The notes beneath the pieces are model-generated. The model was given only the letters and a program-made list of their open reading frames with translations, ran no database searches and was not told where the DNA came from. A stretch of DNA of 55,595 nucleotides from a virus (taxonomy: Duplodnaviria > Caudoviricetes). The number at the start of each line of letters is the position of its first letter. Position 1 is the first letter of the stretch. Where the stretch lies: positions 1 through 55,595 of the IMG/VR virus record IMGVR_UViG_3300003465_000007. One strand, given 5' to 3'. The position numbers were made by a program, and so were the translations under genes. This document shows, in pieces, positions 5,266 to 42,575 of this stretch.

Positions 5266-6228
5266 ATGGCTAATGGTGGGTCAGTACGTGAGATGTTAAC
5301 CGTGGTGGAGACGGTCACTCGGGAGGCGGAACCAGATGCGGAGTATCAGGCACTCTTGGCGTCCTTCCTGCGGCACCTGCGAGCGGAGCGCAAGAGTCCG
5401 GCCACGGTGCGGTCGTATCAGGATGCGGTGACCACCCTGGGGGCGTACTTGCTCCGGGAGGGGATGCCGACCAAACCGATAGGCATCACCCGGGAGCATG
5501 TGGAGTGCTTCATCTTAGAGCAGCTCGATCAGCGCTCCGACAGTACCGCGCGCACGCGCTTCGCCGGGTTGCGGGTGTTCTTCAACTGGCTGGTGGACGA
5601 AGGGGAGTTGACCGCCTCCCCCATGGCCCGCATGAAGCCCCCCAAGGTCGCGGAGGACCCGCCGGCGGTGCTCTCCGCGCTGCACATCCAGCGCCTGCTC
5701 AAGGCGTGTGGGGGGCGCAACTTCGAGGACCGGCGGGATTTGGCCATCATTCGCCTGCTGCTTGATACGGGCATGCGGCGGAGCGAGCTGGCCGGACTCC
5801 AGATCGCGGACGTCGACCTCGATGCACAGATTGCCACGGTGCGGGGGAAGGGGGACCGGGTGCGGCTCTGTCCCTTCGGCGCCAAGGCGACCCAAGCGCT
5901 GGACCGCTATCAGCGGGCGCGTGCGGGCCATCGCCATCAGCAGTTGCCGGTCTGGTGGCTCGGCGCGCGCGGGGGACTGACCGGGGCTGGAGTGTATCGA
6001 ATTGTGAAGGTGCGGGGGCGACAGGCCGATCTGCCCCGGTACATCTGGCCCCATCTGTTCCGCCACACCGCGGCCAGCAACTGGCTGGAGCAAGGCGGGC
6101 AAGAGGGCGACCTGATGCGGCTGGCCGGCTGGCGGTCGGTGCAGATGATGCGACGGTACGGCTCTGCCGAGGCGGATCGGCGGGCAATCAAGGCGTTTCG
6201 CGAGCTTTCTCCGGGCGATCGGTTTTAA
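5266..6228 (+). CDS. int: Tyrosine integrase
   Basis: TGMRRSE, GKG, HLFRH, AGW, RY catalytic motifs; AGGAGG RBS. Confidence 0.95.
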   Translation: MANGGSVREMLTVVETVTREAEPDAEYQALLASFLRHLRAERKSPATVRSYQDAVTTLGAYLLREGMPTKPIGITREHVECFILEQLDQRSDSTARTRFAGLRVFFNWLVDEGELTASPMARMKPPKVAEDPPAVLSALHIQRLLKACGGRNFEDRRDLAIIRLLLDTGMRRSELAGLQIADVDLDAQIATVRGKGDRVRLCPFGAKATQALDRYQRARAGHRHQQLPVWWLGARGGLTGAGVYRIVKVRGRQADLPRYIWPHLFRHTAASNWLEQGGQEGDLMRLAGWRSVQMMRRYGSAEADRRAIKAFRELSPGDRF

Positions 6229-6318
6229 GGAAGCAGGCAAGTTTGCCCCCCGAAAAACGCTGAATCTTCCGGTACCTCGCTTAGACTGGTCGCAGGCAGA
6301 TGGTATGGAGGATGATCG

Positions 6319-6987
6319 ATGCGGCTGGCACTGATCCTGGTTACCCTGGCGACCCTGGCCCTGGCGCTCTTCTCCGCGGCCCCCACCCACGCCGATGGCG
6401 ATCTGTGTTACCAGACCGCCGGCCGCTTCGGCTGCACCACGCCCACCGCGACGGCCCAGGCGCGCCCCACCCAGACCCCGACCGCCACCCGCAATCTGGC
6501 GAGCTGCGAGGTCGCGCCGCCCAGTGAGGGTAACTGGCAGTGCATCGGGGGCAAGTGGGTACTGATCCCGCTGGAGACCGCGCGCCAGACCGCGACGCCG
6601 ACCGCGACGCGCAGCAAGTGGATTTGTGAGGTTGCGCCGCCGAATGAGCCGGGCTGGCAATGTCTCGGTGGCCGCTGGGTGTTCGTGCCCAGCCCGACCC
6701 CGAGCCCGACCGCCACCAGCGGGGTGGACTGGGCGCCGTGCTACCAGACCGCGGGTCGGCTTGGCTGCGGCGCACCCACGGTGCAAGTGCAGGCGCGGCC
6801 CACCCAGACGCCCACGCCGACGCGCAATCCGTTTATCTGTGAGGTGAACCCACCGAATGAGGGCGACTGGCGCTGCGTTGACGGTCGGTGGGTGCTGATC
6901 GTGAGCCCGACGCCGACTGCCACGACGGGGCCGGACTGGGCGCTGTGCTACCGGACCGGGAACCGGGCGTACGGGTGTCCACGGTGA
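6319..6987 (+). CDS. Secreted protein with repeated two-Cys modules and Pro/Thr linkers
   Basis: Signal peptide (THA cleavage), 3x CEVxPPxExxWxCxxGxWV, 3x CYxTxxRxGC-like; GGAGG RBS. Confidence 0.85.
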   Translation: MRLALILVTLATLALALFSAAPTHADGDLCYQTAGRFGCTTPTATAQARPTQTPTATRNLASCEVAPPSEGNWQCIGGKWVLIPLETARQTATPTATRSKWICEVAPPNEPGWQCLGGRWVFVPSPTPSPTATSGVDWAPCYQTAGRLGCGAPTVQVQARPTQTPTPTRNPFICEVNPPNEGDWRCVDGRWVLIVSPTPTATTGPDWALCYRTGNRAYGCPR

Positions 6988-7026
6988 AATTGGTCGGGGC
7001 AATTTCACAAATTCGCCCCCAAACCC

Positions 7027-7055
7027 TTGACAATACTATACGTAGTGTATATACT
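7027..7055 (+). promoter_or_regulatory. Strong moron promoter with palindromic spacer
   Basis: TTGACA-17-TATACT; ATAC-TA-TACGTA-GT-GTAT imperfect palindrome. Confidence 0.85.
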
Positions 7056-7084
7056 CTAGTATCAAGAGTGAGGGAGCGACGATC

Positions 7085-7360
7085 GTGGAGACCACCCTGC
7101 CCGCCCTGAGCGGGTCAGACAAGCAAGTTGAGTGGGCGGAGCGGATCCGCGCGGAGAAGATCGCGGAGATCCGCGCGAACGAAGCGCGCCTGGGGGAGTG
7201 GATGGGGCCGCTCCCTGACCAGGAGCGCGGGCTTCCAGTCCTGCTCGCGCAGGCGGACGCGGGGTGGTGGATCAACCACCGCCGCGCGGATGGAGCGCGA
7301 CTGGCGGAGACGGTTGGAAAGCGACAGCGGCTCGGCATGCCGCTGTTCCGGGGCTGGTAA
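7085..7360 (+). CDS. Hypothetical phage protein (LxGSxKQVxWAxxIR motif)
   Basis: RBS, motif I recall from phage accessory proteins. Confidence 0.75.
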   Translation: METTLPALSGSDKQVEWAERIRAEKIAEIRANEARLGEWMGPLPDQERGLPVLLAQADAGWWINHRRADGARLAETVGKRQRLGMPLFRGW

Positions 7361-13664: not shown

Positions 13665-14429
13665 CTATGGCGCGTCGTAATAGGGATATGCGAGCCCCTG
13701 CCCGCGGTTCCACAACTGTTTGATCTCGTCATCGCTCAGCGCCCGCTTCCAGGCGCTCGGCTGCCACATCAAGCCATCGAAGAACCAATCCGCAAGTGCT
13801 GGCCGTGCACCCATCGAGAAGTTGCCGGTGACATCGGCCTGGAGGTCATTCGTGCCGGTGTACTCCACGTCAACCGGGGCCCCGTCCACGAAGAGTCGAA
13901 CTCGCAGATCGGTCGAACTTCGACGGTCAACCCTCCCCGTCACCATCTGCCAGTTGGTGCTGGGCGACCCTCCGGTAGCCTGTACCACGGAGCCGAAGTT
14001 GTAGGAGAACAGGAATCGGAACACCGAGACATCGACATAGAGTTGGATCGTCGGGTTTCCGTACTGCCCGCTGCCCATGATCTGCGCCTGGATTGCCGCC
14101 GTCTCCAACTTGATGAAGCTGTTGAACGTGCAGCTCGTGTTTCGGAAGTCACAGTCACCCGTTGACGCGCGGTAGTGGTACTGGCTATTGCTCAGCTCGT
14201 AATCGACCGATGGGCCATTCCCGGCTGGCGCATTGCCTCCGGCTGGGTTTCCTCCAATTCCGACCGCTCCACTTCCACCCTTCGTCAGAGTGTTCCCACG
14301 GCCGGTGAGGTCGTAGTTCGGGCTACTGGTGCCGTCGAGTGGGGCCATGCAGAACACCAGTCCATCGAGCAAGCTGCTCGGCCTCCGCTGGTACGGTCGC
14401 GCGGGAGCGAGGCCCGCTGGTCGCGACAT
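13665..14429 (-). CDS. LamG/concanavalin-like tail protein
   Basis: WQMVTG, LFVDG, FFDGLM..WKRALSDDEIKQLWN. Confidence 0.8.
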   Translation of the reverse strand: MSRPAGLAPARPYQRRPSSLLDGLVFCMAPLDGTSSPNYDLTGRGNTLTKGGSGAVGIGGNPAGGNAPAGNGPSVDYELSNSQYHYRASTGDCDFRNTSCTFNSFIKLETAAIQAQIMGSGQYGNPTIQLYVDVSVFRFLFSYNFGSVVQATGGSPSTNWQMVTGRVDRRSSTDLRVRLFVDGAPVDVEYTGTNDLQADVTGNFSMGARPALADWFFDGLMWQPSAWKRALSDDEIKQLWNRGQGLAYPYYDAP

Positions 14430-14430
14430 C

Positions 14431-15387
14431 CTAGTCCTGCTGCACGATCAGGATGAGGTCGAAGCGACCGGAGCTCGCCGGGGTGTAGGCGTTGTCGACC
14501 ATCAACGTTCCGAAGAGGCTCGAGGTGCCGCTCGCGCACTTGAAGGGGAAGGGACCGGGCGCAAAGTAGATCTGCGCGGTGGTGCCGAGGGCAAACCGCC
14601 GGGTGAACTCGATCGGCGGCATGGACGTCCGCGCAATCGTGGTGCTGAGCGCGGAGGCGGCGTTGTCGTTGTTGGGGGTGAACGTGGTGTCCGCCAGGAG
14701 CAAGCGGAAGATGCCCGGCGTGGTGGGGTTGCTCTCATCCACCAGGATTGCGCCGAGGATGGTCCCACTGCCCCCGTTCAGTCGGGCCGTGCTGCTGAAG
14801 GTCAGCACGGTGGGGGCGCTGGTGCTGTTGTTGACTGCGTCGCCGGCGGCGTAGGCGTTGGTGTCGGCCGGGCGCGTGAAGTTGGTCCCCACGTTGACCC
14901 CGATCCCGCCCGCGATGACGTGCGTCCGCCCGTACTCGTCGACGTAGAGCCGCGCCAGGTTCCCGGCCGCGACCGCACTGGGGAGGGCCGTCGCCGCGTA
15001 GCCGCCCAGCAGGAGCGGGTTCCCGGCCGCGGCGGCGTTGTGCGCGGCCGGCCCCTGGGCATACAGGCCGCTGGTGGTGCCCCGAGCGCGGTCCCACGTC
15101 GTGCCGTTGAAGTACTCGAGGAACGCCTGGATCTGGGTCAGGGTCGGGTTGGAGGTGCCATCCGCCAGCGCGGCCGCGGCCGGGAGGCCCACCTGCCGCA
15201 CGACCAGGCCGTAGTCCGTGGAGCCCGGCGCCGCGTTGGCGCCCTTGATCGGGCTCTCGGACCCGTCGGTGCCGTCCAGCAGCTTGATGAGCTGCACGAC
15301 CTTGTCGGTGTCGACAGTGTCGATGGCGATCTTGGTGCCGCTGGGCACGCTCGAGAGCGAGGTGGTGGTGACCGATTCGGTGGCCAT
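14431..15387 (-). CDS. Tail fibre/minor tail protein
   Basis: Ala/Gly/Thr-rich; NGTTWDR and RPADTNAYAAGD motifs. Confidence 0.7.
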   Translation of the reverse strand: MATESVTTTSLSSVPSGTKIAIDTVDTDKVVQLIKLLDGTDGSESPIKGANAAPGSTDYGLVVRQVGLPAAAALADGTSNPTLTQIQAFLEYFNGTTWDRARGTTSGLYAQGPAAHNAAAAGNPLLLGGYAATALPSAVAAGNLARLYVDEYGRTHVIAGGIGVNVGTNFTRPADTNAYAAGDAVNNSTSAPTVLTFSSTARLNGGSGTILGAILVDESNPTTPGIFRLLLADTTFTPNNDNAASALSTTIARTSMPPIEFTRRFALGTTAQIYFAPGPFPFKCASGTSSLFGTLMVDNAYTPASSGRFDLILIVQQD

Positions 15388-15627
15388 CTACGCCTCCTCT
15401 CCCGTCGTGGCTGTCGCCGCGGCCGGTTCAGCCGTCGGTTCGACGTAGGGGTCGATCACCGTCATCACGACCAGGCTGTGATTGAGGTAGACGACGTCCG
15501 TGCCCGCCAGCTCGAACGGCATCTGGGTGCCCGCGTCCAGCATGATGCGGCTGTCGGTCACCAGCTCGTGCACGCCGGTCATCCCATTGGGGAGGGTGTA
15601 GTGCACGCTCACTTTCTTCTTGGGCAT
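15388..15627 (-). CDS. Small hypothetical protein
   Basis: AGGAGG RBS, MPKKKVSVHY. Confidence 0.7.
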   Translation of the reverse strand: MPKKKVSVHYTLPNGMTGVHELVTDSRIMLDAGTQMPFELAGTDVVYLNHSLVVMTVIDPYVEPTAEPAAATATTGEEA

Positions 15628-15680
15628 GGGGCCTCCTACTGCTTCAGCCGGATGTACGCGGGGTAGACGTATAATTGGGT

Positions 15681-16526
15681 GTGCCAGAGCAGATTTGCGA
15701 ACACTGCCAGCAGGCCTTTTCGGTGTTCCCATCGCGGGGCGGTCTGCGCCGGTTCTGCAGCGCTGCCTGTAAGTCCGCCGCGAGCAGTACTGAAGTGAAC
15801 TGCCCTCGTTGTGGTGCATCCTTCCGCGTGGGCAACCGTCGCCAAGTGAAGGCGCAATACTGCAGCGCAAGTTGCTACCACGAATCGCATACGGTCACCT
15901 TGTCGTGTGAGCAGTGCAGCCAGCCCTTCACCAGACCGGCGCATCTGCGCGAACAGCGATTCTGCAGCCGCACCTGTCGCGCGACAAACCAGACGCGGGA
16001 CGTTGCCGAACGGTTCTGGGAAAAGGTGAACAAGCACGGGCCCATCCCTCCCCACCGTCCTGAACTCGGGCCTTGCTGGCCATGGACGGCCGCGACGAAT
16101 CAGGGGGGATACGGAGAGTTTCGAGTCGGGGATCGACCACAACTGGCACATCGGTTCTCGTATGAATTGGCGAATGGGCCACTCCCACCGGGACACGACG
16201 CCTGCCATCGTTGCGACAACCCGCCGTGCGTGCGACCCGATCACCTGTTCCCAGGCACCAACGCGGACAACCTGAGAGATATGCACGCGAAGGGCAGAGC
16301 AACCACCAAGCATGCTCGCGGGGATGCCCACCATTTGCGAAAGCATCCAGAACTGGCGAAGCGAGGCGAGCAGAATGGCCATGCGAAGATGACCGCGAAC
16401 GACGTTCTTCGCCTTCGTGACCAGGCAGAGCAGGGAGCGACCATCGCCCAACTGGCCACGCAGTTTCACATCTCGACCGATCAAGTGCGAAACATCATTA
16501 AACGTAAGCAATGGGCGCATATCTAA
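15681..16526 (+). CDS. Intact HNH homing endonuclease (Zn ribbons, HNH, C-terminal HTH), antisense, probably leaderless
   Basis: CHRCDNPPCVRPDHLFPGTNADN; TATAAT 5 nt before GTG. Confidence 0.92.
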   Translation: MPEQICEHCQQAFSVFPSRGGLRRFCSAACKSAASSTEVNCPRCGASFRVGNRRQVKAQYCSASCYHESHTVTLSCEQCSQPFTRPAHLREQRFCSRTCRATNQTRDVAERFWEKVNKHGPIPPHRPELGPCWPWTAATNQGGYGEFRVGDRPQLAHRFSYELANGPLPPGHDACHRCDNPPCVRPDHLFPGTNADNLRDMHAKGRATTKHARGDAHHLRKHPELAKRGEQNGHAKMTANDVLRLRDQAEQGATIAQLATQFHISTDQVRNIIKRKQWAHI

Positions 16527-16531
16527 GCAGA

Positions 16532-17086
16532 TCATTGTTTTAGTCTCAGGTATGCCGGGTAAATATACAGAGTGGTCACCGTGTCGGCGCCATCCGACCC
16601 GACGCGCGTCACGGAGAATCCGACCTCGCAGTTGGCCACCAGGCCCGTGAAGAGCGCGCTGATGTCGACCGCGGTGAGCTGGTTGGCGGTCACCGCGTAG
16701 GTGGCCACCGCCATGCTATCGGTGGTGGCGTTGTCGTCGCTACCGTCTGGGCCCCAGGACGCGGCGAGGGACAGCCGCACGTTCCCGGTCTGGGGACTCT
16801 TGATGAGGAGCTTCGCCTCGACCAGCCCACGGCTCGCCTCGCCCATGAAATCGGCCGGTGTGCGGAAGCCGGCGAAGTAGCCGGTGCCATCGTTGCTCGC
16901 ATCGCCGAGCGAGGCCACTACATGGTTGTTCACCGCGACCAGCGCGGTGCCGGTGCCACTCACCAGCAGGATGGGTGGCCAGATGGGGTCGCGGTTCACC
17001 GCCTCATCGTTGGCGATCAGCTGGTTGTATTCGGTGTCCTGGACCGCGTAGCCGTTGTACCGGGTGATCATGCTGCGGTAGGCCAT
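16532..17086 (-). CDS. Minor tail protein
   Basis: Position; recoded C-terminus next to HNH. Confidence 0.75.
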   Translation of the reverse strand: MAYRSMITRYNGYAVQDTEYNQLIANDEAVNRDPIWPPILLVSGTGTALVAVNNHVVASLGDASNDGTGYFAGFRTPADFMGEASRGLVEAKLLIKSPQTGNVRLSLAASWGPDGSDDNATTDSMAVATYAVTANQLTAVDISALFTGLVANCEVGFSVTRVGSDGADTVTTLYIYPAYLRLKQ

Positions 17087-17099
17087 CAGCGACTCTCCA

Positions 17100-19346
17100 T
17101 TAGTTCAGCACCGTGGTGCTGCCTAGCGCCCCGGTTCCCAAGATCCAGTAGTTGGTCGGGTTCTCGCCCGCAGTCAAGGGCGCACCGTTTTCGGTCAGCG
17201 GCTGCACCGCGCTCAGCACAAAGGTGGTCTGCATCTCCAGGCCGCGATCGGGGGTCATGCGGAAGTCCTGGCCGATGCCCTCGATGTAGCAGGCCATGTT
17301 GCTGATCCCGAGGCGCGTCTTGAGGCGCAGCCCTTCCACGATCACCCGGTCGCTGACCTCCCGACGGAAGCACTGCACGAGCTGCGCGGTGGACATGCGG
17401 CTGTCCATCGGCATCACGAGCACCGGACGATTCAGCCGATGGCGATTCATCAGGAGCTGGCCCGCGCTCTGGGCGTCGCTCGTGCTGCGGTAGAGTTGGC
17501 CCGGGCGGGGATAGGTGCGCTTGCCGCTGCCCACGGTGACCTTCTGCGGATCGACCGCCTGGGCCCGGAAGCCGCGCGCCATGATGCGGGTGAGGTGCGC
17601 GGTGACCGCCGCGTTGTTGGTGACCGTGAACTTCATCTGGTTGCCGGCCTTCTCGACGTTCGAGACGGCCAGATCGCCCGCCACGATGGGGGCGTCAAAC
17701 AGGATGTCGGTCCCGACCACCGGGGTAGTCCACTGGTCCACGAATTGGTTGTTGAGGTTATTGAGTCCAAAGGTGGCCGTAAAGGCGCGTGACGCCCCGG
17801 CCGGGATGAACACGTCGTACTGCACCAAGCGGCCGGACGTCTCGTAGTCCGCCTCGGTGTAGGTCCACAGCACGCCCAGGTTCGTGTCCACCACGAAGGC
17901 CGGCAGGACGTAGTTCACCACGTCGAACACCTCGGTCCGCATGAAGCTGTATCCACTGGGAACCAGGTCCGTGTAGTGCACGTCCAACACGATGTCGTCG
18001 GTAAAGGTTTGCGCCGAGGTAACCGATGCGGGGCGGGTGAGGCGCCGACTGCGCGACTCGAAGACGAGGTCGCCTCGCTTCGACTCCCTGGCCAGACCAA
18101 GCTCGACGTCTTCCTGTAGGTGGATGGCGTCGAGCGCGATCAGGTCCTGCGGACTCCAGACCCCGACGTACACATCCCCGTCGTCGATGTCCCGCGCAGT
18201 GGCCGACCAGCCGGCCGCATCCGCCACCCGCCCCACGTGCCCGCCGGTGGTGATGAGGTCCTCGGCGCGGGTGGGGGCCAGGCTGATCTCCGGCACTGCC
18301 AGTTCCGAGAGCGGACCCAGCGCCTCGAGGTAGGCCTTTGCCTGACCATCCCGTCCGGTCACCGGGCGGAGATCGACCAGGGTCCCGGTCCACAGGTAGT
18401 CCACCACCGGCACCATGCTCCGGAACTGCACCTTGCGGTCGGTGGCCGGGAGATGGTCGAAGTTCACCGAGCGCGCGAAGGGGCTGTATTTGCCCAGGGC
18501 CCGCCCGTCGAAGGCCGCCAGCGAGCCGGACAGGTTCTCGACCGTGGCGCGGAACCAGCCAGCCGCCACCTGCTCGGTGAGGCGGCCGCTCTGACGGCCG
18601 GTGAAGCAACTCACCTCCAGCCCGTCGGTGCTGAGATCCTCACTGACGCCATCGCCGTTGACGTCCGTCTCGTCGAAGTCGCCGTCGTCGTCCCAGTCCA
18701 CCAGGAGGCGCACCACGGCGTCCCCGTTGGGGGTGCTGCTGAAGTCCGGGGTGACGATCTTGGAGGCCGAGCCGACCCGAATCAGCACGTCGCGGTCCGC
18801 CGCGCCGCCTGCGCCCGAGATGACCCAGGCGAGCTGGAGGAACAGGTACTCCGCCTGCAGCCCGAACCGCCCGGGGTTAAAGGTGATGGTGCAGGTCTGA
18901 GGGGAACCGGGGGTGAGGTTGGTCACCGCGGAGCTGACCAGCGGTCCCAGTGTGACCTCGCGGGCCTTGCTCCCGTCGACCTGATCGGATACCCACAGCC
19001 GTGCCCGCAGCGCGCCGTCCTGGTCTCCACCGCTGCTGACCGCGACCACCGGAATGGTGATGGTCCAGGTGCCGGCCGCGAACTGGCCGGTGAACGGACC
19101 GGCCTCCCACGCATCGCCGAGCGTGGGATCGAGCTCAACATCCGTCGGGAGTACCGTGGCCCCGAAGACCGACGAAGCGCGCAGGAAGCCAGCCGCCAGT
19201 AGGGCGTAGGCGGTAGCCGCCGTGGTGCCGACCGTCCATCCGGTGCCGGTGGTCGCGGTGGCTGGCGGCGATCCCCCGTCCTGCAGCGCCATCATGGCCG
19301 AGCCGGCAAAGAGGGAGTTGAGTAAGTACAGCGTCTTCACCGCCAT
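17100..19346 (-). CDS. Large minor tail (distal tail/hub-like) protein
   Basis: Follows tape measure; VDWDDDGDF, YSP motifs. Confidence 0.75.
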   Translation of the reverse strand: MAVKTLYLLNSLFAGSAMMALQDGGSPPATATTGTGWTVGTTAATAYALLAAGFLRASSVFGATVLPTDVELDPTLGDAWEAGPFTGQFAAGTWTITIPVVAVSSGGDQDGALRARLWVSDQVDGSKAREVTLGPLVSSAVTNLTPGSPQTCTITFNPGRFGLQAEYLFLQLAWVISGAGGAADRDVLIRVGSASKIVTPDFSSTPNGDAVVRLLVDWDDDGDFDETDVNGDGVSEDLSTDGLEVSCFTGRQSGRLTEQVAAGWFRATVENLSGSLAAFDGRALGKYSPFARSVNFDHLPATDRKVQFRSMVPVVDYLWTGTLVDLRPVTGRDGQAKAYLEALGPLSELAVPEISLAPTRAEDLITTGGHVGRVADAAGWSATARDIDDGDVYVGVWSPQDLIALDAIHLQEDVELGLARESKRGDLVFESRSRRLTRPASVTSAQTFTDDIVLDVHYTDLVPSGYSFMRTEVFDVVNYVLPAFVVDTNLGVLWTYTEADYETSGRLVQYDVFIPAGASRAFTATFGLNNLNNQFVDQWTTPVVGTDILFDAPIVAGDLAVSNVEKAGNQMKFTVTNNAAVTAHLTRIMARGFRAQAVDPQKVTVGSGKRTYPRPGQLYRSTSDAQSAGQLLMNRHRLNRPVLVMPMDSRMSTAQLVQCFRREVSDRVIVEGLRLKTRLGISNMACYIEGIGQDFRMTPDRGLEMQTTFVLSAVQPLTENGAPLTAGENPTNYWILGTGALGSTTVLN

Positions 19347-22300
19347 GCGCGGGCTCCCCGCGCGGCGAGGTTCATCTGGCCCGCGACCATGCCGTTCTCC
19401 AGATGGTGCTGGTCGATCACGGCCACCATGGGGTTCGCGGCGAGGGCGGCGGCGAGCGCGTGAATGCTGGCGGGGGACAGCTCGAGCGTGGCGCTGTTGC
19501 CGCTAGATAAGCTGCCGCTGGGACCACCGGTGGTAGTGCCTCCGCCGGTGGTCCCACCGCCGCTATTGACGCCGTGCAGCGAGGCTGCCAGACTCACCGC
19601 TTTCTGAAGATCCTCAACCATCCCATCGTAGGTCGAGTCGGCCACATCCTTGATCTGGGGCAGCAGGGTATCACGGATCAACTCCATCCGGCCCTCCAAC
19701 TTGCCGTACTCCAACTTCGCGACCCTTTCCGTCTCGGCCAGCGCCGCGTTGGCGTTCTTCTCGACGTCGGCCGCCCGGTCTAGGATGTCCTGCTGTCGGC
19801 GTAGCAGGTCCTCATTGGTGAACGACTTCTCAAGGTCACGCGCTGAAGCCTTCAGCCGATCAGCGATCCCTTCCAGCGCCCGCCGGTGTTCTTCGGCGGC
19901 GTTCAGGTCCGCGGTCTGGTCGGCCTTCCGCTGGGTACGATCGTCGGTCGCGCGCTGCTGTTGCTTGGCGCGCTGCGCATCTTCCGCTGCCCACCGGTCT
20001 TTGAGCTTCTGCATCTCATCGTCGACTTCGCTGCGGGCCTTCCCCATCCCCTGGCCGAGGTTGGCGTCCTTCCCCGCGGACTCGGCCCGCTTGCGCATCG
20101 ACGCCTGGAGGTCGGCCAGCTCCTTCGCCCGCTTCTCCGTGGTGTCCTCGACGTAGCGGTTGATATCCCGCTCGAGGTCGCGCGTCTCGCGCGTGTCCTG
20201 GACCCGCTGGCGCTCCTGCTGATAGCGGGTGTTCTCCGCGTCGGTCTCGCCCTTCGAGCCTTGCTGCAGCGCGTCCCGCTGGCCCTGTCGCTCCTCATTC
20301 CGCCGGAAGTCAGCCCAGAGCTGATCAACTTCTTGCTCAGCCCGCTGCCTGGCGTTGGTGATCGTCTCTTCGGTCCGCTGGATGGCCACGTTGATGGTCT
20401 CTTCCATCTTCTGTCGGGCGATCTCGAGCGGCAGCTCGAGGTTCAGGTTCTGCAGCATCGACTCGAAAGCGGCCCGCGTCTCAGGCGTCTTGTCCGTGAT
20501 CATGGTGCGGAAGGCGTCCATCAGCTCGCCGGCCAGCTGGCTCGCCCGCTCTGGCGACAGGTCCGGGTTCTGCAGGAGCGTCGCCTGCATGCTTTGGACG
20601 GAGCGGGCCAGGGTGGCAATGTTCTGCTGGCCGCCTTCCTCCCACGCTCGGTTGAGCGCATCCATGATCGAGGCGCCGCCGCTGCCGAAACTGGCGGAGA
20701 GCTGGGCCGCGTCGAAGGCCTTCGCGAAGCTCTCCGGGGTCAGCGCGTTGGCTGCCTTGATGGCTTCCGTGACCGTCCGGATCATCTCCATGGCCGCTGC
20801 TCGCGCGGCCGGGTTGCCCCGCTCGATCAAGGCATCATGGAAGGCGCCGGCCAGCGCGTCCGCGACGTCCTGGAAGTCGGTAATCCCAGCCTCGCGCATC
20901 TTGGTGGTGGCGTCCTGAACCCAGGTCCGCAGCGCGGCACCGGCCGCCCCGCTGTTCTCCCGCATGGCCGTTTCGAGCGCGTTGGCGCCCTTGCCGCCCC
21001 ACTCCCCGAAGATCGCCGCGAAACGGGTCTCTGCGCTGGCCGCCCGCATGAAACCTTCGATCGCGCTCTCCTGCATGGCCTCGCCCGCCGCGAGGCCAGC
21101 GCCCTTCGCACCTGCCACGGCCGGTGCGCGCGTAGCTCCCCCGAATTGGTTCCCGGTGTAGGTGCCGCCCTCCCGCGCCGCGGGGCCGGCCGCGGTGGTC
21201 GCTTCGGCGATCACTTCCGAGACGGTCTCCGGGAACGTATTCGCGCTGTATTCGGCCCAGGCCGCGTTGAAGGCAGCTACGTTGGCCTGGATCTCCGACT
21301 GACGGAGCGTCACCCCACCGGAGGTAACCGTCGGGTCGTAATTGGCGTAGCCGAGCGCACGCTCTTCCTGGCTGACGCGGGTGCCATTGAATTGATCGTC
21401 TACCCAGGTCCCGGCCGCACTCGCGCCAGCGCCAATCCCGCTGGCCATGCCTCTTAGCAGGGCATCCTTGAGCTTGGCCCCGGCCGCGAACATCATGGCC
21501 GCACCCTTGTCCTCCACCCACTGGAGGATGCCGCCCGCGAACTCGGTGAATTTCGTGATGGCCCACGGAAGGGCCTGATCGACAATCCAGTCCACGGTAG
21601 CCGGTAGCCACTGCTCGAGGAACTTTTGGGCGAGCAGCTTGGCCTTTTCTTCCACCCAGGGCCCGAGCACGCCCCAGATCTCTTCGACCTTCTTCCCGAG
21701 CGCTTCCGCCGCGCCGGGTACCCAATCGACGAATGCTTCCGCCCACTGGGCAACCGTCTTGTCGATCGCGTCCAGCGAGTCCTTCAGGTTGCTGGCGCCG
21801 AAGACGCTCCCGAACGCCTCCCCGATCCCGCCCAGCTTCGGCAGCACCTGCGACTCCAGAAAGTCCGCCACCGGGGCCATGCGGGTCAGCAGGTCATCGA
21901 AGCCCCGGGCCATCCCCTGCAGCGCAGCCTGAAACTCGGGGCGGTTGGCCGCGTCGGTCAGGCGCTGCATCTGCTCCGTAGCGCGGTCGAAGAACGGTTC
22001 AATGACGGTGCCCATCGCCTGGTTGAAGGTGTCCCGTAGGGTAGAAGCCAGTCCGCCGAACGTGCGGCTCTGTTTTTCCATCAACCCGTTGAATCGCTCG
22101 TCCATCAGGTTGAGCACGCCGGCGATGGCATCGCCGGAACGGACCGCGCCGCGGCTCACCAGGTCCATCGCCTCGGGCACGGACACCCCGATTTGCTTGG
22201 CGAGACCTTCCCAGGCCGGCACGCCGAGCTCCGTGATCTGCATCAGCTCCTCGGCCGATGCCGTGCCCTTCGCCTGCATCTGGCCGAGCGCCATCACCAC

Positions 22301-22804
22301 GCGGTTGATGCCCTCGTCGCCCTTGCCCAGCCCGGCCATGGCGTCGCCAATGGAACCAAGCATGGGGATGATCTGCTGCGATTGGAAGCCCATCGCCTGC
22401 AGCTTCTGGGAAGCGTCGATCACGCCGGGCAACTCGAATGGGGTCTGTGCAGCGAAGGCCGTCAGGTCCTGCAGGTGCTGCTTCGCCGCGTCCGACGATC
22501 CCATCATGGTCTCGAAGGCGAGCAGGGATTGTTGCTGTAGGTTGTTGAACTTGAATCCCGCGTCGACTGCACCCCGCAGCCGGTCGATGGCGGCTCGCGC
22601 CGCGTCCACCGCCACGATGGCCACCGCGAACCCGGCCGCCTGTTTGGCGACCGAACCGAACGCGTCCCCCAGGCCGCTGAGACTCCGACTGCCTTCGTGC
22701 CCGGCGCGGACCAGCCGCTCGACGCTCTCGCGGGCTTGGTCGGTCGGCTGAGACAGCTTGTTATCCCCGCGTAGGATGGCGAGGATCTCTATGCCATCAC
22801 TCAC
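19337..22804 (-). CDS. Tape measure protein
   Basis: 1155 aa, FAAQTPFE, LGQMQAKG..EEL.Q..E.GVP tape-measure motifs. Confidence 0.95.
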   Translation of the reverse strand: MSDGIEILAILRGDNKLSQPTDQARESVERLVRAGHEGSRSLSGLGDAFGSVAKQAAGFAVAIVAVDAARAAIDRLRGAVDAGFKFNNLQQQSLLAFETMMGSSDAAKQHLQDLTAFAAQTPFELPGVIDASQKLQAMGFQSQQIIPMLGSIGDAMAGLGKGDEGINRVVMALGQMQAKGTASAEELMQITELGVPAWEGLAKQIGVSVPEAMDLVSRGAVRSGDAIAGVLNLMDERFNGLMEKQSRTFGGLASTLRDTFNQAMGTVIEPFFDRATEQMQRLTDAANRPEFQAALQGMARGFDDLLTRMAPVADFLESQVLPKLGGIGEAFGSVFGASNLKDSLDAIDKTVAQWAEAFVDWVPGAAEALGKKVEEIWGVLGPWVEEKAKLLAQKFLEQWLPATVDWIVDQALPWAITKFTEFAGGILQWVEDKGAAMMFAAGAKLKDALLRGMASGIGAGASAAGTWVDDQFNGTRVSQEERALGYANYDPTVTSGGVTLRQSEIQANVAAFNAAWAEYSANTFPETVSEVIAEATTAAGPAAREGGTYTGNQFGGATRAPAVAGAKGAGLAAGEAMQESAIEGFMRAASAETRFAAIFGEWGGKGANALETAMRENSGAAGAALRTWVQDATTKMREAGITDFQDVADALAGAFHDALIERGNPAARAAAMEMIRTVTEAIKAANALTPESFAKAFDAAQLSASFGSGGASIMDALNRAWEEGGQQNIATLARSVQSMQATLLQNPDLSPERASQLAGELMDAFRTMITDKTPETRAAFESMLQNLNLELPLEIARQKMEETINVAIQRTEETITNARQRAEQEVDQLWADFRRNEERQGQRDALQQGSKGETDAENTRYQQERQRVQDTRETRDLERDINRYVEDTTEKRAKELADLQASMRKRAESAGKDANLGQGMGKARSEVDDEMQKLKDRWAAEDAQRAKQQQRATDDRTQRKADQTADLNAAEEHRRALEGIADRLKASARDLEKSFTNEDLLRRQQDILDRAADVEKNANAALAETERVAKLEYGKLEGRMELIRDTLLPQIKDVADSTYDGMVEDLQKAVSLAASLHGVNSGGGTTGGGTTTGGPSGSLSSGNSATLELSPASIHALAAALAANPMVAVIDQHHLENGMVAGQMNLAARGARAWR

Positions 22805-26991: not shown

Positions 26992-27156
26992 CGAGGTGAG
27001 CGGAATGGGCAGGCCAAGCTGACGGACGCTCAGACCATGGAGATCCGAGCGTTGTACGCTTCGGGCACGGCGATGCAGAAGGTCATCGCGGAGCGCTATG
27101 GCATCCATCAATCGACCGTCAGCGACATCATTCGGGGAAAGCGCCATAAGACCTAA
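26992..27156 (+). pseudogene. Remnant C-terminal HTH of an HNH homing endonuclease
   Basis: RGERNGQAKLT...IAERYGIHQSTVSDIIRGKRH; like C-terminus of 15681-16526; no adjacent start. Confidence 0.8.
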
Positions 27157-27174
27157 CCTGCCCACCCGCTCAAA

Positions 27175-28092
27175 TCAATTCGTGATTCTTTGGGCCATCT
27201 GCCACAGGCCATAGCCCGCGCTGCAGCGCATGTCCACGCCGTACGCGAATTTCTTGGTCTTGAAGACCTCCGCGTCCGAAGGGTTGTTCACTGCCGCGAA
27301 TTCCGGCTGCTTCCGCCACTGGAAGAGCAGGGGCTTGATCGGCTGGCGCGTGCACAGCAGGAACCAGTCGTTCAGGTCGGTGAGCAGCGAATCGACCATG
27401 ATGTCCGCCGCGTTCAGCAGCACGTTGGACTGCTGCGTACCGCTGGAGAGGGCGATCATGTTGGTGTGGATGAGCTGCTCGAACACGTCCTCCAGGTCCG
27501 GCGGCACAATCACCAGGTCGGGTCGCAGGTTCATCGGGCGGGCCTTCCCGTCCTTGGTGCGGCGCATGGCCGTCCGGGCAGAGATGAAGTCCGCCCGCAC
27601 TTGGGCCAGCGTGGTGCCGGTCCCGGTGTTGGTGTTGGACTGCGTGCCCGATCCGTCCTCGCTGTGGGAGGCGGAGAAGAAGTTCGCGCCGTCATAGCAG
27701 GCGGTCGAGCCCCCGGCCACCAGCGCGGTCACTGCCAGCTCCGCTGGGTAGCGGGCCGCTTCCTGCCCGAGTTGCTGGATGCGCGGGCGGATCAGGTTGT
27801 ACTTGTCGTCTTCGAGGGTGTCGCGGTCGACCTCGATCGACGCCTCGTAGTGCTTGTTCTTGAGGCTGTAGGTCGACGGCACCAACCCCTGCAGGTTGCG
27901 CTGGTCGATCCACTCGCTCATCTTGGGAACGGTGCCAAGCCAGTTATAGGACTCGGTGTCCGTCTCCGAGGGGACAATCGTGCAGTACCGCTCATAGTCC
28001 ACCGCGCTCGACGCGGCCAGGAAGGCATCCTCCCAGATCACGCGGAAGTTGGTGAACAGACCGGCCAGGAAATCGCTGGTAACGACAGCCAT
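27175..28092 (-). CDS. Major capsid protein (Mu gpT-like)
   Basis: YNWLG..PKMSEW, NKHYE.SI.V.RD..EDD, KPLLFQ.RK, AGYGLWQMA. Confidence 0.95.
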   Translation of the reverse strand: MAVVTSDFLAGLFTNFRVIWEDAFLAASSAVDYERYCTIVPSETDTESYNWLGTVPKMSEWIDQRNLQGLVPSTYSLKNKHYEASIEVDRDTLEDDKYNLIRPRIQQLGQEAARYPAELAVTALVAGGSTACYDGANFFSASHSEDGSGTQSNTNTGTGTTLAQVRADFISARTAMRRTKDGKARPMNLRPDLVIVPPDLEDVFEQLIHTNMIALSSGTQQSNVLLNAADIMVDSLLTDLNDWFLLCTRQPIKPLLFQWRKQPEFAAVNNPSDAEVFKTKKFAYGVDMRCSAGYGLWQMAQRITN

Positions 28093-30469: not shown

Positions 30470-30940
30470 ATGGCGCATCCTCAGTCTACCCCCAGCACTT
30501 TCACCTGTCCTCCGTTCGGGCAAACCCGTCCCATGCCCCCATCGCAGATCAAGAAGCTGCGCTATTGCTCTCTGGAGTGCCGGCGCGCAGCGATGACCTA
30601 CGGAGTCTGTCCTCAGTGCGGGAAGGACTTCGTGTTTCCGCGTGGACGTAAGGCCCGCTACTGCTCCCGGGCGTGCTACACCAGCGCTCGCCAACTGACT
30701 GATGCACAGTTCGTCGCACGCTTCTGGTCGCTGGTCGAGAAGAATGGTCCTGTCTTGCAAGCAGATTTGGGGCCGTGCTGGCTCTTTACGGGGCATCTGG
30801 ACAAAGACGGCTATGGCATTCTTCAGCGCGGACGGAGAGGATCCACAAACTCGGTCACGAAGCGGGCGAATCGATTCTCGTACGAACTCGCGAAGGGGCG
30901 TCTCCGTCCCGGTCAGGGTGGCCGCTTCGTAGTGCACTGA
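30470..30940 (+). pseudogene. Truncated HNH endonuclease lacking the HNH core
   Basis: Zn ribbons, RFWSLVEKNGP..LGPCW..GYG..RFSYELAKG then stop. Confidence 0.8.
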
Positions 30941-36119: not shown

Positions 36120-36706
36120 GTGTCGTCCTCAGCTGCGGGTTCGGCTTCGACGTCGGCCGGCAGCACTGCGGTGATGGTCCGGATGGTGATGGGCCGCTCG
36201 GCATCGCCCTGGTGGAGGTGGACATCCTTGCGGGCACCGAGTTCCTTGGCGATGTCATCCAGCAGGCCGCGGAACTGCTCGACCTCCTGATGGTTGAAGC
36301 GGAGGATATCCACCCGTTCGGCGTGCTCTCCGCTACCAATCTGCTTGACATCGGGGAGCCATCGACGATTGTTCTCCCCTTCCTCGGTGAGCTCGGCGAA
36401 GAGCACGTCTGCCAGCCGCTTCATGGACTGGATGCGCTCGTGGATGAGGGCATAGCCACTGTCCATGATCTCGCGGCGGTAGGCTGCTTCTCGCTCTTCG
36501 GCCTCTCTGGCTTCGCGGTCGGCGATCTCGGAGAGACGCGCCTGCCAGCCGTAGGCGACCGACCAGGCTTTGAGGGTTGCGAGCCGTGTGGTTGGGCTCG
36601 CTTTGGGCGCATTCTGGTAGCGCTCCAGCAAGCCCGCCAGGCTGCGCCCTGGTCCCAGAGCGAGATAGTCCGCCCATGCCTGTTGCGCTCGTGGTGTCTC
36701 TCGCAC
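36116..36706 (-). CDS. terS: Terminase small subunit
   Basis: N-terminal Y..LGP.RSL...WS..Y.W..R; overlaps terL. Confidence 0.8.
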   Translation of the reverse strand: MRETPRAQQAWADYLALGPGRSLAGLLERYQNAPKASPTTRLATLKAWSVAYGWQARLSEIADREAREAEEREAAYRREIMDSGYALIHERIQSMKRLADVLFAELTEEGENNRRWLPDVKQIGSGEHAERVDILRFNHQEVEQFRGLLDDIAKELGARKDVHLHQGDAERPITIRTITAVLPADVEAEPAAEDDT

Positions 36707-37985: not shown

Positions 37986-38360
37986 TCATTGGTCCCTCGG
38001 CGGCGCGACCTGCGCCAGGCTGGCGCAGCCGATCACCCGGCCCTCGCCGTCCCGGATCAGCTCGTCCGGGAAAAACAGGTCGCGACGGCTGGGCAGCGCC
38101 TGCGCGACCATCTGCGAGACGACCAGCGCCACCGCCGGGCGCTCCTCCGGCAGGTCGATGGCCGCGCCGAGGCGGGTCTCCCAGACCGGCAGCGGCACCC
38201 CGTCCGGCAGGGTGAGGCTGGGCGCCTGCACCCGGCGCACCTCCACCCGCGCGACGGTGCCCTCCGGCGGCAGGTGGCGGCGGCCCCCGTCCCAGATCAG
38301 GTCGATCTGGTGCGGGGTCAGGTTGAGCAGGTCAACGCGACTGGTGGTCAATGGGGCCAT
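37986..38360 (-). CDS. NLTPH-family protein; probable Crn4-like ring nuclease
   Basis: NLTPH, PP.G.VARV, DLP, VVS..VA, R.DL..P, RD.EGRVIGC; family link from recall. Confidence 0.6.
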   Translation of the reverse strand: MAPLTTSRVDLLNLTPHQIDLIWDGGRRHLPPEGTVARVEVRRVQAPSLTLPDGVPLPVWETRLGAAIDLPEERPAVALVVSQMVAQALPSRRDLFFPDELIRDGEGRVIGCASLAQVAPPRDQ

Positions 38361-38593
38361 CAGGACTCCGCCTCGATGCAGGCCAGCAATCCGTCGTAGA
38401 CCGCGCGCTTGACGCGAATCTCCTCCATTCCGAGGCGATCCGCCTCGGAATGGAGGAGATTCGCGTCAAGGGTCTCATCGACAAAGTGCCACACTGCATC
38501 CCCCACCTGGCTGGGGGATGTCTCCGCCAGGAATTGGGCAACCGTCTGGTTGCCCACAAACTGGTGCCATATCTGCGCGGGGGTTTCGGTCAT
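38360..38593 (-). CDS. Small acidic protein, first gene of accessory cassette
   Basis: GAGGAG RBS after consensus promoter. Confidence 0.7.
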   Translation of the reverse strand: MTETPAQIWHQFVGNQTVAQFLAETSPSQVGDAVWHFVDETLDANLLHSEADRLGMEEIRVKRAVYDGLLACIEAES

Positions 38594-38651: not shown

Positions 38652-38974
38652 GGGTTTGGGCAGGGGATTTGCGAGATTGCTCGGAAATTGGGCGCGGTAT
38701 TGGGCGGGGCACGGTTCACCGGCGATCCCGCGCCGGCACGATGGCAGACGTAGAAGCCATCGGGCACCGGGCCGTTGGTCAACTCAAAGGCGACCACGTG
38801 CGCGGAAACGAGTTTCCGATCATGCAGGTAGAACTTGCCGTAGCCGCCGCCGTCGGTGCTCTTCGTCCACGGCCAACAGGGGCCGAGGTCGGGTCGGATG
38901 AGGGGGCCATCCTTGTTGACCTTGGACCAGAAGCGCGCGATGTCGCCCAGGGTATAGCTATACTGCGGTTGCAT
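38648..38974 (-). pseudogene. HNH endonuclease truncated at VCHR
   Basis: RFWSKVNKDGP..LGPCWPWT..GYG..AH...YVCHR then unrelated sequence. Confidence 0.8.
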
Positions 38975-42210: not shown

Positions 42211-42575
42211 GCGTCCTCCAACAGCAGCGCTTGCGCCACGCCCTCGCCGACGATTTGCGTCACGAGCTGGTCACCGCGCAGCTCGTTGCCGTCCCACCCC
42301 TGAGGCCACGCCTCCGCGGCGATCAACTCTTCGATGCGGGCAAGCTCTTCGGGATTGATCAACACGACGGGCGGATGGCCGCCTGCCGTGGCGATGGCCC
42401 CGACCTCGTTCTGGATATCCAGAATGGCGTCCCGCACGTGGCGCTGCCGACGGGTGAGCTTGACCTTGCGCTTCCCACAGTGAGCGCAGTACTCGGGCTT
42501 CTCCACCGACACGCGCGTCTCTTCCTCACACCAGCCACACCAGATCGCGCGGTAGCGCAGGTCTTCATTCAGCAT
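42207..42575 (-). CDS. Zn-ribbon hypothetical protein
   Basis: CGWC...CAHCG. Confidence 0.6.
   Translation of the reverse strand: MLNEDLRYRAIWCGWCEEETRVSVEKPEYCAHCGKRKVKLTRRQRHVRDAILDIQNEVGAIATAGGHPPVVLINPEELARIEELIAAEAWPQGWDGNELRGDQLVTQIVGEGVAQALLLEDA

Follow-up and report, generated by a model that had tools for sequence, protein, structure and literature searches.

In the window analysed here, i.e. the whole 55,595-nucleotide stretch of DNA from a virus (Caudoviricetes), an HNH_3 homing endonuclease gene has probably been copied, in antisense orientation, into a tail-module gene at its last 13 codons, bringing with it a diverged version of the same codons. The letters of the locus and their codon usage show a host gene that now ends in what appears to be an imported, AT-shifted copy, with the native end left intact but disconnected beyond the insert. 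The features on which the argument draws are as follows.

15388..15635, minus strand: ribosome-binding site (RBS) GGAGG and the next tail-module gene, 79 aa, with its ATG at 15627
15636..15677, minus strand: orphaned gene end QLYVYPAYIRLKQ plus TAG, assigned on peptide score and host-typical codons
15636..16535, minus strand: 299-codon open frame in the HNH complement, which may be a relay ORF or may arise by chance as a shadow frame
15670..15675, plus strand: TATAAT hexamer across the junction between orphan and HNH start, from the sequence
15675..16526, plus strand: free-standing HNH_3 endonuclease gene, 283 aa, assigned with Pfam and PHROGs
16532..16573, minus strand: working recoded end of 13 codons (TLYIYPAYLRLKQ) plus TGA
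16532..17086, minus strand: host gene, 184 aa, tail module, from its ORF
19337-22804: tape measure gene, assigned with PHROGs
26992..27144, plus strand: possible relic of the HNH C-terminal helix-turn-helix, residues 230-279, from a weak tblastn match (E=0.004)
27175-28092: major head gene
30485..30916, plus strand: degenerate HNH paralogue, residues 36-174 only (tblastn, 3e-18)
38735..38944, minus strand: degenerate HNH paralogue, residues 109-180 (tblastn, 2e-21)

The host gene lies two genes downstream of the tape measure gene, and closes with the codons ACT CTG TAT ATT TAC CCG GCA TAC CTG AGA CTA AAA CAA TGA. The codon score of this working tail falls in the bottom 0.5% among 10,787 13-codon windows of the genome's genes, 8 of its 13 codons each make up less than 13% of their own synonymous family, and its GC3 is 5/13; a continuous low-GC block runs from the 3' end of the HNH gene into it. 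On the far side of the HNH gene, 0.9 kb away from the 184-aa gene and in a frame that differs from the gene's, the orphan reads CAA TTA TAC GTC TAC CCC GCG TAC ATC CGG CTG AAG CAG TAG, with ordinary codon usage (32nd percentile; GC3 11/13). Its opening two codons, CAA and TTA, are themselves rare (TTA accounts for 0.7% of Leu codons) and fall where the orphan overlaps the start region of the HNH gene, so the native remnant may start at the TAC (Y) that follows them. Downstream of the orphan come GAGGCCCC and then the ATG (15627) of the 79-aa ORF; the GGAGG RBS shares the G of the orphan's TAG, i.e. the native stop-to-start junction has been kept. A preliminary description of this DNA had picked out both the AT-shifted end of the tail gene at 16532-17086 and the orphan in GC-rich codons at 15636-15677 with the next gene's RBS behind it; both are present, the former in rare codons.

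We scored the duplication by ungapped BLOSUM62 comparison of the 15-residue gene end with all six frames of the 55.6-kb genome. The orphan scored 65 against the working end, the second-best peptide match in the genome being 17, and when all ORF ends (ORFs of at least 50 codons) were compared with the whole genome the pair of working end and orphan ranked first (61, with the next at 52). The two copies have identical residues at 10 of 13 positions (77% aa) and identical nucleotides at 22 of 39 (56%), and the duplicate gene end was not detected by a DNA repeat finder because the copies lie below its identity range. The HNH gene is thus flanked by two gene-end copies that are similar as protein and diverged as DNA, the pattern of endonuclease-linked gene-end replacement. 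The preliminary description had called the duplicate synonymous, which is right for eight codons that are spelled differently for the same residue but does not extend to the 3 of 13 residues that differ.

The AlphaFold2 model of the 184-aa protein (pLDDT 89) is a beta-sandwich with weak matches to carbohydrate-binding-module-like folds (TM 0.40-0.45). Since the tail forms the last beta-strand of this confident model (residues 179-183) and the nearest family members terminate in ...ILKQ and ...ILRQ, i.e. end ...LKQ/...LRQ at the same position as the host protein, a truncated host gene would probably be defective. The protein has 188 distant relatives, the best at 42% identity. A locus search with the 184-aa protein and its 318-aa neighbour found no relatives in viral contigs, a word-index protein search matched the 184-aa protein to itself only, and the degenerate pattern Y[IV]YPAY[LI]RLKQ-stop gave 0 matches in viral contigs and 0 in metagenome contigs; the DNA of the region had only two short matches to named phages, both HNH-internal, and for positions 14900-17400 no sequencing run was listed. 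As the collections searched contained neither an HNH-free nor an HNH-bearing relative of the window phage (the nearest protein shares 42% identity), we assigned the polarity of the window locus, with a presumably native orphan and a presumably imported working tail, from codon usage and by analogy with the cases below.

The HNH gene is intact and sits between the two gene-end copies, antisense to the tail operon, and its stop is 5 nt from that of the tail gene. Its GC3 is 0.67, compared with 0.76-0.94 in host genes. The encoded protein has zinc-ribbon repeats, an HNH core and a C-terminal helix-turn-helix; residues 157-201 match Pfam HNH_3 (PF13392) with 37.5 bits (cut-off 24.8; 1.8e-9), further Pfam matches are zf-FCS and HTH_23, and PHROGs endonuclease families match at 2.3e-29 to 3.4e-22. 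The protein has 1506 homologues. We aligned a set of 41 sequences, including the window protein, and a set of 10; in both, H178, C180, C185, H190 and N199 are invariant, and these we take to be the catalytic His/Asn and the zinc-binding Cys/His of the HNH motif. A sequence search of the PDB with the HNH protein returned only a designed helix-turn-helix repeat (E=0.0018), which was uninformative. The gene could start at TTG 15675 or GTG 15681. The TATAAT that had been noted 5 nt ahead of the GTG is there in the sequence, one of two occurrences in the genome against 1.05 expected; a promoter scan found no -35/-10 (sigma-70) pair at it, and a scan of the locus for promoters and terminators gave one terminator-like site, not above shuffles. 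The hexamer may be a -10 box for a leaderless GTG-initiated transcript. The paralogue at 30485..30916 lies antisense between the portal/F-like and protease genes, that at 38735..38944 breaks off inside the catalytic motif, and the possible relic at 26992..27144 lies antisense, at a distance of about 25 nt from the major head gene's stop. Remains of this sort elsewhere in the genome, here two clear degenerate paralogues and a possible relic with weak support, are what the life cycle of a homing gene would lead one to expect.

The same layout recurs beside other HNH genes of this kind. The profile for the locus search was built from the 10-sequence HNH alignment, the 41-sequence alignment being too diverse, and the boundary-duplication test covered 81 loci with homologous HNH genes, drawn from at least 592 viral HNH loci. 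In 4 of the 81 loci the peptide comparison of one flank with the other scored at least 53, compared with 1 of 400 cross-locus null pairs. Of 148 loci elsewhere that hold a homologous HNH gene, we judged three to have a gene-end duplication like that of the window and two to have its mirror image, a duplicated gene start. The three (L052, L063 and L075) share the window's gene-end layout in unrelated host genes; L052, with a score of 46, is under the null's 99th percentile (48) and was accepted on geometry. Identity between working copy and orphan was 56-64% at the nucleotide level across the window and these three loci, and GC3 was lower in the working copy than in the orphan in 4/4 cases (5/13 vs 11/13, 9/13 vs 12/13, 7/22 vs 19/22 and 6/14 vs 10/14), for which a sign test gives only P=0.06. 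The host genes of L075 and L052 had no relatives in viral contigs, and the L052 gene has two protein relatives (73% and 43% identical) whose C-termini differ and do not discriminate between its copies.

This recurrence bears on the explanation that the window holds a one-off mosaic junction, in which illegitimate recombination duplicated the gene end and the HNH gene is a passive passenger. Phage genomes are mosaic, no donor was found in the collections searched, and the activity of the HNH protein is only predicted, all of which would suit such an accident. However, at least three further host genes, all unrelated, show this layout directly beside a homologous HNH gene, there are more duplications at HNH boundaries than the cross-locus null gives, and the GC3 difference has the same polarity in every case, so that we regard a one-off event as unlikely.

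The analogue in Mycobacterium phage SkinnyPete (L063/L087), where the methylase is gp52, the HNH protein gp53 and the orphan lies within the 69-nt gap between gp53 and gp54, allowed alleles without the insert to be compared with the two copies. The preliminary description had proposed this comparison, expecting that empty alleles would not match the AT-rich copy; run on the SkinnyPete methylase/HNH pair, it agreed with that expectation, as for 11 of 12 HNH-free relatives the stranded GC-rich orphan was the nearer copy (51-66 of 72 nt, compared with 43-57 of 72 for the AT-rich working copy). The orphan and Piper2020 gp75 agree at 64/72 nt. In SkinnyPete the displaced copy is therefore the native one, i.e. 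it matches the HNH-free alleles, and the working copy is foreign. The working tail has a GC3 of about 0.33, compared with 0.53-0.81 in the gene-end segment of 12 natural alleles, and resembles a natural allele of another lineage (L094; 57/72 nt, with the last 15 nt the same); the left junction is sharp and comes directly after 26 nt of perfect identity. The HNH gene was present in 2 of the 14 methylase loci examined, and the insert was covered by 6 of 53 matching phage records. Cultured phages of Mycobacterium smegmatis include both bearers of the insert (SkinnyPete, Misha28, TootsiePop, Awesomesauce and DocMcStuffins) and insert-free phages (Piper2020 and others). SkinnyPete, Misha28 and TootsiePop have the whole methylase-HNH-orphan block in common at 99-100% identity, which could reflect module exchange, not homing, as a mosaic junction would have it.

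On the homing model that we favour, the endonuclease gene would have stood, in a donor phage, immediately after a diverged allele of the tail gene. The naive allele would be cut near codons 171-173, and repair would copy the donor gene end and the endonuclease gene, with the left crossover in the conserved ...GADTVT block and the right join at or near the break, without homology. In the invaded allele the left half-site would abut differently spelled codons and the right half-site would abut the endonuclease gene; because no intact target would be left, this allele should be immune, and the diverged gene end would stay linked to the endonuclease gene and move with it. The preliminary proposal that the element repairs its host gene with an end of its own gains support from the native look of the orphan, the position of the tail within the low-GC block of the HNH gene and the SkinnyPete alleles, but the replacement is not strictly synonymous. 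The recoded tract reaches no more than one or two codons beyond the upstream edge of the duplication, and a co-conversion tract this short seems surprising for repair from a diverged donor and would count against the homing model. Judged by base composition, the donor alone does not account for the low GC3 of the working tails either, since these are AT-richer than the HNH gene at the respective locus (binomial P 0.03, 0.0009 and 0.04; L052 0.78) and the SkinnyPete tail lies below the natural alleles.

These compositions would fit a local exact duplication followed by in-place synonymous recoding of the working copy to escape a resident nuclease: the working tails are AT-richer than the HNH genes in 3/4 cases, the GC3 of the SkinnyPete working tail is below that of all 12 natural alleles in the gene-end segment, and escape mutations biased from GC to AT would yield AT-rich tails. 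However, the orphan, which is unconstrained, has stayed near the native alleles (up to 66/72 nt in SkinnyPete) while the working copy is about 40% different, so the change could not have arisen in place since the insertion. The likeness of the SkinnyPete working tail to a natural allele of another lineage (L094, 57/72 nt) also argues against recoding in place, and we consider it very unlikely.

The preliminary description had further called the arrangement free of splicing, and this holds. An Rfam search of positions 14000-18500 on both strands, at E up to 1, found no intron or other family, and an intein would lie in frame, on the host strand and with splicing blocks, whereas the HNH gene runs on the other strand. 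The host gene is closed by a stop of its own, and the orphan's frame is a different one; read from its layout, the arrangement involves no splicing because the HNH gene is antisense and the two copies are in different frames. Some hidden removal of the insert (by a group I/II intron, an intein, ribosomal bypass or a frameshift) that joins the 184-aa gene to the orphan and makes the tail a by-product could appeal to the HNH complement, in which 299 codons stay open up to the end of the orphan, and to the actinophage methylases with read-through 'hidden HNH' insertions in the available part of PMC11855218, but it is scarcely credible when there is no Rfam match at E up to 1, the host gene has an in-frame TGA after a complete, family-typical C-terminus, and the open frame is offset by -1 from that of the gene, upstream extensions of such frames being not coding-like.

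The 299-codon frame has an ATG that overlaps the TGA of the host gene (ATGA), ends with the stop of the orphan and is -1 relative to the host gene. Of 82 homologous HNH genes, 19 have the equivalent frame open; a simple third-position model predicted 4.4 of the 82 and was rejected, and we therefore used an empirical baseline. After de-duplication the complement frame was open in 11/27 antisense-embedded vs 2/21 co-oriented HNH genes (p=0.022), and in a second set the effect of orientation was not significantly replicated (2/4 vs 6/25, p=0.30). It is possible, from these counts, that antisense-embedded HNH genes tend to leave the complementary strand open. ShiLan-like read-through of host genes across the HNH complement was also considered and rejected, as the upstream extensions have shadow-frame composition.

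More tentatively, and with considerable doubt, the HNH homing genes of GC-rich phages might colonise gene ends in a general, splicing-free way that combines a respelled end with a stop-free relay frame. A respelled gene end (or, in the mirrored form, a gene start with its RBS) would restore the host gene and destroy the nuclease target, and an antisense element in an operon would keep the complementary strand stop-free. The relay frame would start at the host stop, take ribosomes over the 0.9-kb insert and end at the orphaned native stop, passing them to the next gene. By carrying ribosomes across the insert, it would avoid polarity on the downstream tail genes, and the orphan would be retained because it preserves the native stop-to-start junction. 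If true, the relay frame would limit in a new way how selfish genes can be accommodated in operons.

If the homing model is correct, free-standing homing endonuclease genes (HEGs) of phages are not restricted to intergenic gaps, introns and inteins, but can enter coding sequence with a replacement end. Such events would leave short unannotated orphans, e.g. that of SkinnyPete, and would yield hybrid genes, swapping the C-termini of structural or receptor-binding-type proteins between phages. Because the stranded copy would record the native allele and probably the cut site, nuclease targets might be read from genome sequence alone. The model is directly testable, since there are cultured Mycobacterium smegmatis phages with and without the insert. 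We found no description in the literature of gene-end replacement by an endonuclease gene in phages.

Integrating elements that bring a substitute 3' end for their target gene are familiar from integration into tRNA genes and from phage 21 and e14 in icd. As in the window, the element supplies a replacement gene end, the insertion is harmless and a partial copy is displaced; those integrators, however, use integrase-mediated site-specific recombination into a host chromosome, whereas the process envisaged here would be nuclease-driven copying between phage genomes. With the free-standing HEGs of T4 (Seg/Mob) and ICP1, the window would share, on the homing model, a nuclease gene linked to a nearby target that is polymorphic in the carrier genome, spread by break repair with co-conversion of flanks, and common degenerate copies. 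To our knowledge, those genes lie between genes and leave no duplicated gene end. Duplication, in the part of the ICP1 HEG paper available to us (PMC10448857), concerns HEG coding sequences and repeats inside the DNA-binding domains of HEGs, not host gene ends. The ShiLan 'hidden HNH', as presented in the accessible part of its report (PMC11855218), is likewise an HNH gene inside coding sequence of actinophages rich in GC, and neither an intron nor an intein is involved. It was proposed to start, leaderless, at a GTG, and TAAC closes its insertion, just as it closes SkinnyPete gp53 at the orphan junction. Unlike in the window, the ShiLan host frame reads through the insertion (same source), whereas the host gene of the window is closed by a seemingly imported end and its native end is abandoned.

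The closest likeness is to the mobile endonuclease ORFs (mORFs) of fungal mitochondria (PMC3630166), which replace gene C-termini in Glomus (atp6, atp9, cox2 and nad3) and in atp6 of Allomyces macrogynus. There too an endonuclease ORF has entered a gene close to its 3' end and has brought along a foreign version of the gene end; the native end is pushed downstream and unused, the copies are alike as protein and unlike as DNA (63.5% nt and 91% aa identity), and the native copy groups with close relatives (PMC3630166). The mORFs of that account are LAGLIDADG or GIY-YIG genes, mitochondrial, oriented with the gene and often fused to it in frame (PMC3630166), whereas in the window the gene is of the HNH_3 kind and belongs to a phage; it lies within a structural operon but on the other strand, and its stop faces that of the host gene at a distance of 5 nt.

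The duplicated gene end lies in a window with direct terminal repeats and 65.8% G+C (a complete 55,595-bp virus record), nearly all of whose genes are carried on the minus strand, with terminase, Mu-like portal, protease and major head genes further along from the following stretch:

19337-22804, minus strand, tape measure gene (PHROGs)
17100-19346, minus strand, 748-aa ORF between the tape measure and the 184-aa gene
16532-17086, minus strand, 184-aa host gene
15675-16526, plus strand, 283-aa HNH_3 ORF, the only plus-strand member of this stretch
15388-15627, minus strand, 79-aa ORF
14431-15387, minus strand, 318-aa ORF

Elsewhere in the genome there are two minus-strand DNA methyltransferase genes, C-5 cytosine (42575-44446; Pfam 9.7e-28) and N6/N4 (45057-47759; 2.6e-14). 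The region 6200-7100 contains diverged direct repeats spaced by ∼105-120 nt within a Pro/Thr-rich plus-strand ORF (6319-6987), which also holds a 67-nt repeat pair 207 nt apart; these repeats gave the second-best ORF-end peptide pair of the genome (6408-6446 and 6741-6779, score 52).

The best such pair, when all ORF ends were compared with the whole genome, was formed by the two copies of the host gene end. The 184-aa gene ends in TLYIYPAYLRLKQ-TGA (the working tail, i.e. its last 13 codons and stop), while an orphan copy on the far side of the HNH gene (15636-15677, minus strand) reads QLYVYPAYIRLKQ-TAG and continues as GAGGCCCC up to the ATG that starts the following gene, exactly as the preliminary description had reported. 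When the last 15 positions of the 184-aa gene were compared with all six frames of the genome the orphan scored 65, and the next best match 17. The contrast between AT-shifted working codons and a GC-rich orphan was also borne out: against a codon table from 35 minus-strand window genes the working tail fell in the lowest 0.5% of 10,787 13-codon windows, with G+C at the third codon position (GC3) in 5/13 codons, whereas the orphan was ordinary (32nd percentile, GC3 11/13). GC3 is 0.89 in the remainder of the 184-aa gene; the shift sets in with the codon ACT, where the 13-codon tail starts, and the low-GC block continues unbroken into the 3′ end of the HNH ORF. The term synonymous duplicate holds in part, as eight codons are synonymous yet different, but only 10 of 13 residues are alike, with 22/39 nucleotides identical. 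Nothing suggests splicing at this locus, in keeping with the original reading: the 184-aa gene has its own stop, the orphan is in a different frame from it, and no Rfam family matched in 14000-18500.

Relatives of the 184-aa protein number 188, all distant (at most 42% identical), and many are C-terminal domains of longer proteins; the nearest two terminate where it does, in ...ILKQ and ...ILRQ. Its AlphaFold2 model (pLDDT 89) is a beta-sandwich in which residues 179-183 form the final strand; fold matches, to structures resembling carbohydrate-binding modules, were weak (TM 0.40-0.45). Judging from the model, a protein lacking its final 13 residues would probably misfold, so a replacement end would be needed.

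The HNH ORF matches Pfam HNH_3 at 37.5 bits (cut-off 24.8), with which PHROGs concurs, and its product, which has zinc-ribbon repeats upstream of the core and a helix-turn-helix downstream, retains the His, Cys and Asn residues that are invariant across the family. A word-index search gave 1506 homologues, the highest identity being about 56%. GC3 of the gene is 0.67, compared with 0.76-0.94 in host genes (crude gene set). As had been described, a TATAAT lies 5 nt upstream of the HNH GTG, where it straddles the junction; no -35 partner was found for it. Translation of the window HNH from a leaderless GTG is possible; such starts have been proposed for hidden HNH genes of mycobacteriophages (PMC11855218). 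The only other TATAAT in the genome is the -10 half of a perfect TTGACA-17-TATAAT at 38651-38623. This sigma-70 consensus promoter (minus strand) sits just downstream of a degenerate HNH paralogue; after it come GAGGAG and the start codon (ATG, 38593) of ORF 38360-38593.

Further HNH-like sequences were found at three places:

30485-30916, truncated HNH paralogue
38735-38944, truncated HNH paralogue
26992-27144, antisense, possible relic of the HNH C-terminal helix-turn-helix (weak, E=0.004)

Together, these similarities look like invasion followed by decay. In the interval 26992-27175, some 25 nt separate the possible relic from the stop codon of the Mu-like major head gene. The final codons of this gene (CAA AGA ... 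AAT TGA) show an AT shift; a search for an orphan copy of its end found none.

We looked for similar arrangements at viral loci that carry a homologue of the HNH gene, taking the best 80 among 592 confirmed loci and comparing both flanks of each for common 12-residue peptides on the same strand. A score of at least 53 was reached by 4 of 81 loci (the window, L075, L005 and L063), compared with 1 of 400 cross-locus null pairs (99th percentile 48, maximum 54). Inspection showed that in L063 and L075 a co-oriented HNH gene is bracketed by two copies of the host gene end. L052, which scored 46, i.e. under the null 99th percentile, was taken in on geometry, as its layout is that of the window: an antisense HNH gene with the working end on its 3′ side and, on its 5′ side, the orphan, which directly precedes the following gene. 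In all four cases of this kind (the window, L052, L063 and L075) GC3 was lower in the working copy than in the orphan, with 56-64% nucleotide identity between copies. L005 and a locus from a second set (68 loci from bacterial and archaeal genome assemblies) are the mirror image, with a gene's RBS and its initial 9-24 codons duplicated around the HNH gene:

L196, 1942-2530, start duplication on an Ilumatobacteraceae MAG contig
L005, 2965-3485, start duplication

In L196 an upstream 25-codon mini-ORF, its TGA overlapping the HNH ATG, is the stranded, GC-rich and native-looking start, and the AT-shifted downstream copy carries on the gene; the polarity of L005 is the reverse. By inspection, boundary duplication was present in 5 of 148 other loci. 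At L185, an antisense HNH gene lies between two minus-strand gene starts (MAKPKRTETQRS... and MATPKRTPTQRA..., 1491-1526 and 2634-2669) that resemble each other over ∼27 residues; the pair may be a further start duplication or paralogues.

Because no relative near enough to serve as an HNH-free (empty) allele of the window locus was present in the collections searched, the polarity there (orphan native, working tail imported) rests on composition; a look for sequencing runs covering the region gave none. The alignment with HNH-free relatives proposed in the preliminary description was run on the analogue L063 (= L087), Mycobacterium phage SkinnyPete, in which the start of gp53 (HNH endonuclease) overlaps the stop of gp52 (DNA methyltransferase) and the orphan lies within the unannotated 69-nt gap between gp53 and gp54 (L170; NC_041882.1 record 36583-36651). 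Awesomesauce, DocMcStuffins, Misha28 and TootsiePop carry the insert at 99-100% identity; in DocMcStuffins the annotation places a second DNA methyltransferase after the HNH gene. Fourteen loci were examined out of 80 of the 185 confirmed methylase relatives, and two carried the insert. Against the 12 HNH-free ends the orphan matched at 51-66 of 72 nt and the working tail at 43-57, the orphan being the closer copy for 11 of the 12, as predicted. A named empty allele, Piper2020 gp75, matches the orphan at 64/72 nt. The exception, L094 (working tail 57, orphan 51), shares its final 15 nt with the working tail and may resemble the donor allele. Relative to L090, the SkinnyPete gene is 82% identical until a sharp junction, preceded by 26 nt of perfect identity, past which there are 28 recoded codons; the orphan begins about 14 nt further in. 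These alignments show that the orphan in the SkinnyPete analogue is the native end.

Opposite the window HNH gene, the complementary strand has an open frame of 299 codons, from an ATG overlapping the host gene TGA to the stop of the orphan, and L052 has the same start-to-orphan pattern. Overall, the complement was open in 19 of 82 homologous HNH genes. We compared orientations across loci L007-L086 and L171-L250, antisense meaning opposed to both neighbours. With a crude gene caller, frames were open in 13/27 antisense-embedded and 3/25 co-oriented HNH_3 genes (p=0.007); after de-duplication, with flanks 100 nt away, the viral set gave 11/27 and 2/21 (p=0.022; HNH GC3 equal), a comparison in which L052 was miscalled co-oriented. 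The second, genome set gave 2/4 and 6/25, which was not significant. Open frames ended at an ATG, or at most 12 nt before one, in 10/17 cases, compared with 8/33 for other antisense frames (p=0.028); closed-frame loci had the same ending in 18/59. These patterns suggest, but do not establish, a translated relay frame avoiding polarity.

Layout, composition and recurrence, together with the native orphan of the analogue, are demonstrated here. In the route that we propose, the nuclease would cut the naive allele near where the orphan starts, and repair would use as template a donor with the HNH gene immediately behind a diverged allele, with the left crossover within a conserved block and the right side joined non-homologously. 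The invaded allele would then be immune, because no intact target would remain. The earlier homing interpretation was right in structure and passed its own test in the homologous SkinnyPete case, the enzymology being putative. In three of the four cases the AT content of the working tail exceeds that of its own HNH gene, an excess not explained by donor composition alone; one possible reason would be long linkage to the nuclease gene combined with GC-to-AT-biased escape changes.

Integration at tRNA genes and icd offers one comparison. A gene-end duplicate is not described in the portions searched of the phage papers, including PMC11855218, PMC3706429, PMC10448857 and PMC2248197, and a text search of PMC9957025 returned nothing on duplication, C-terminal or HNH. 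Fungal endonuclease ORFs (PMC3630166) are a clear precedent for gene-end replacement. Replacement of a gene end linked to an endonuclease gene is already known, and what is new here, and distinguishes the window from that fungal mitochondrial system, is the phage, HNH_3, antisense version.
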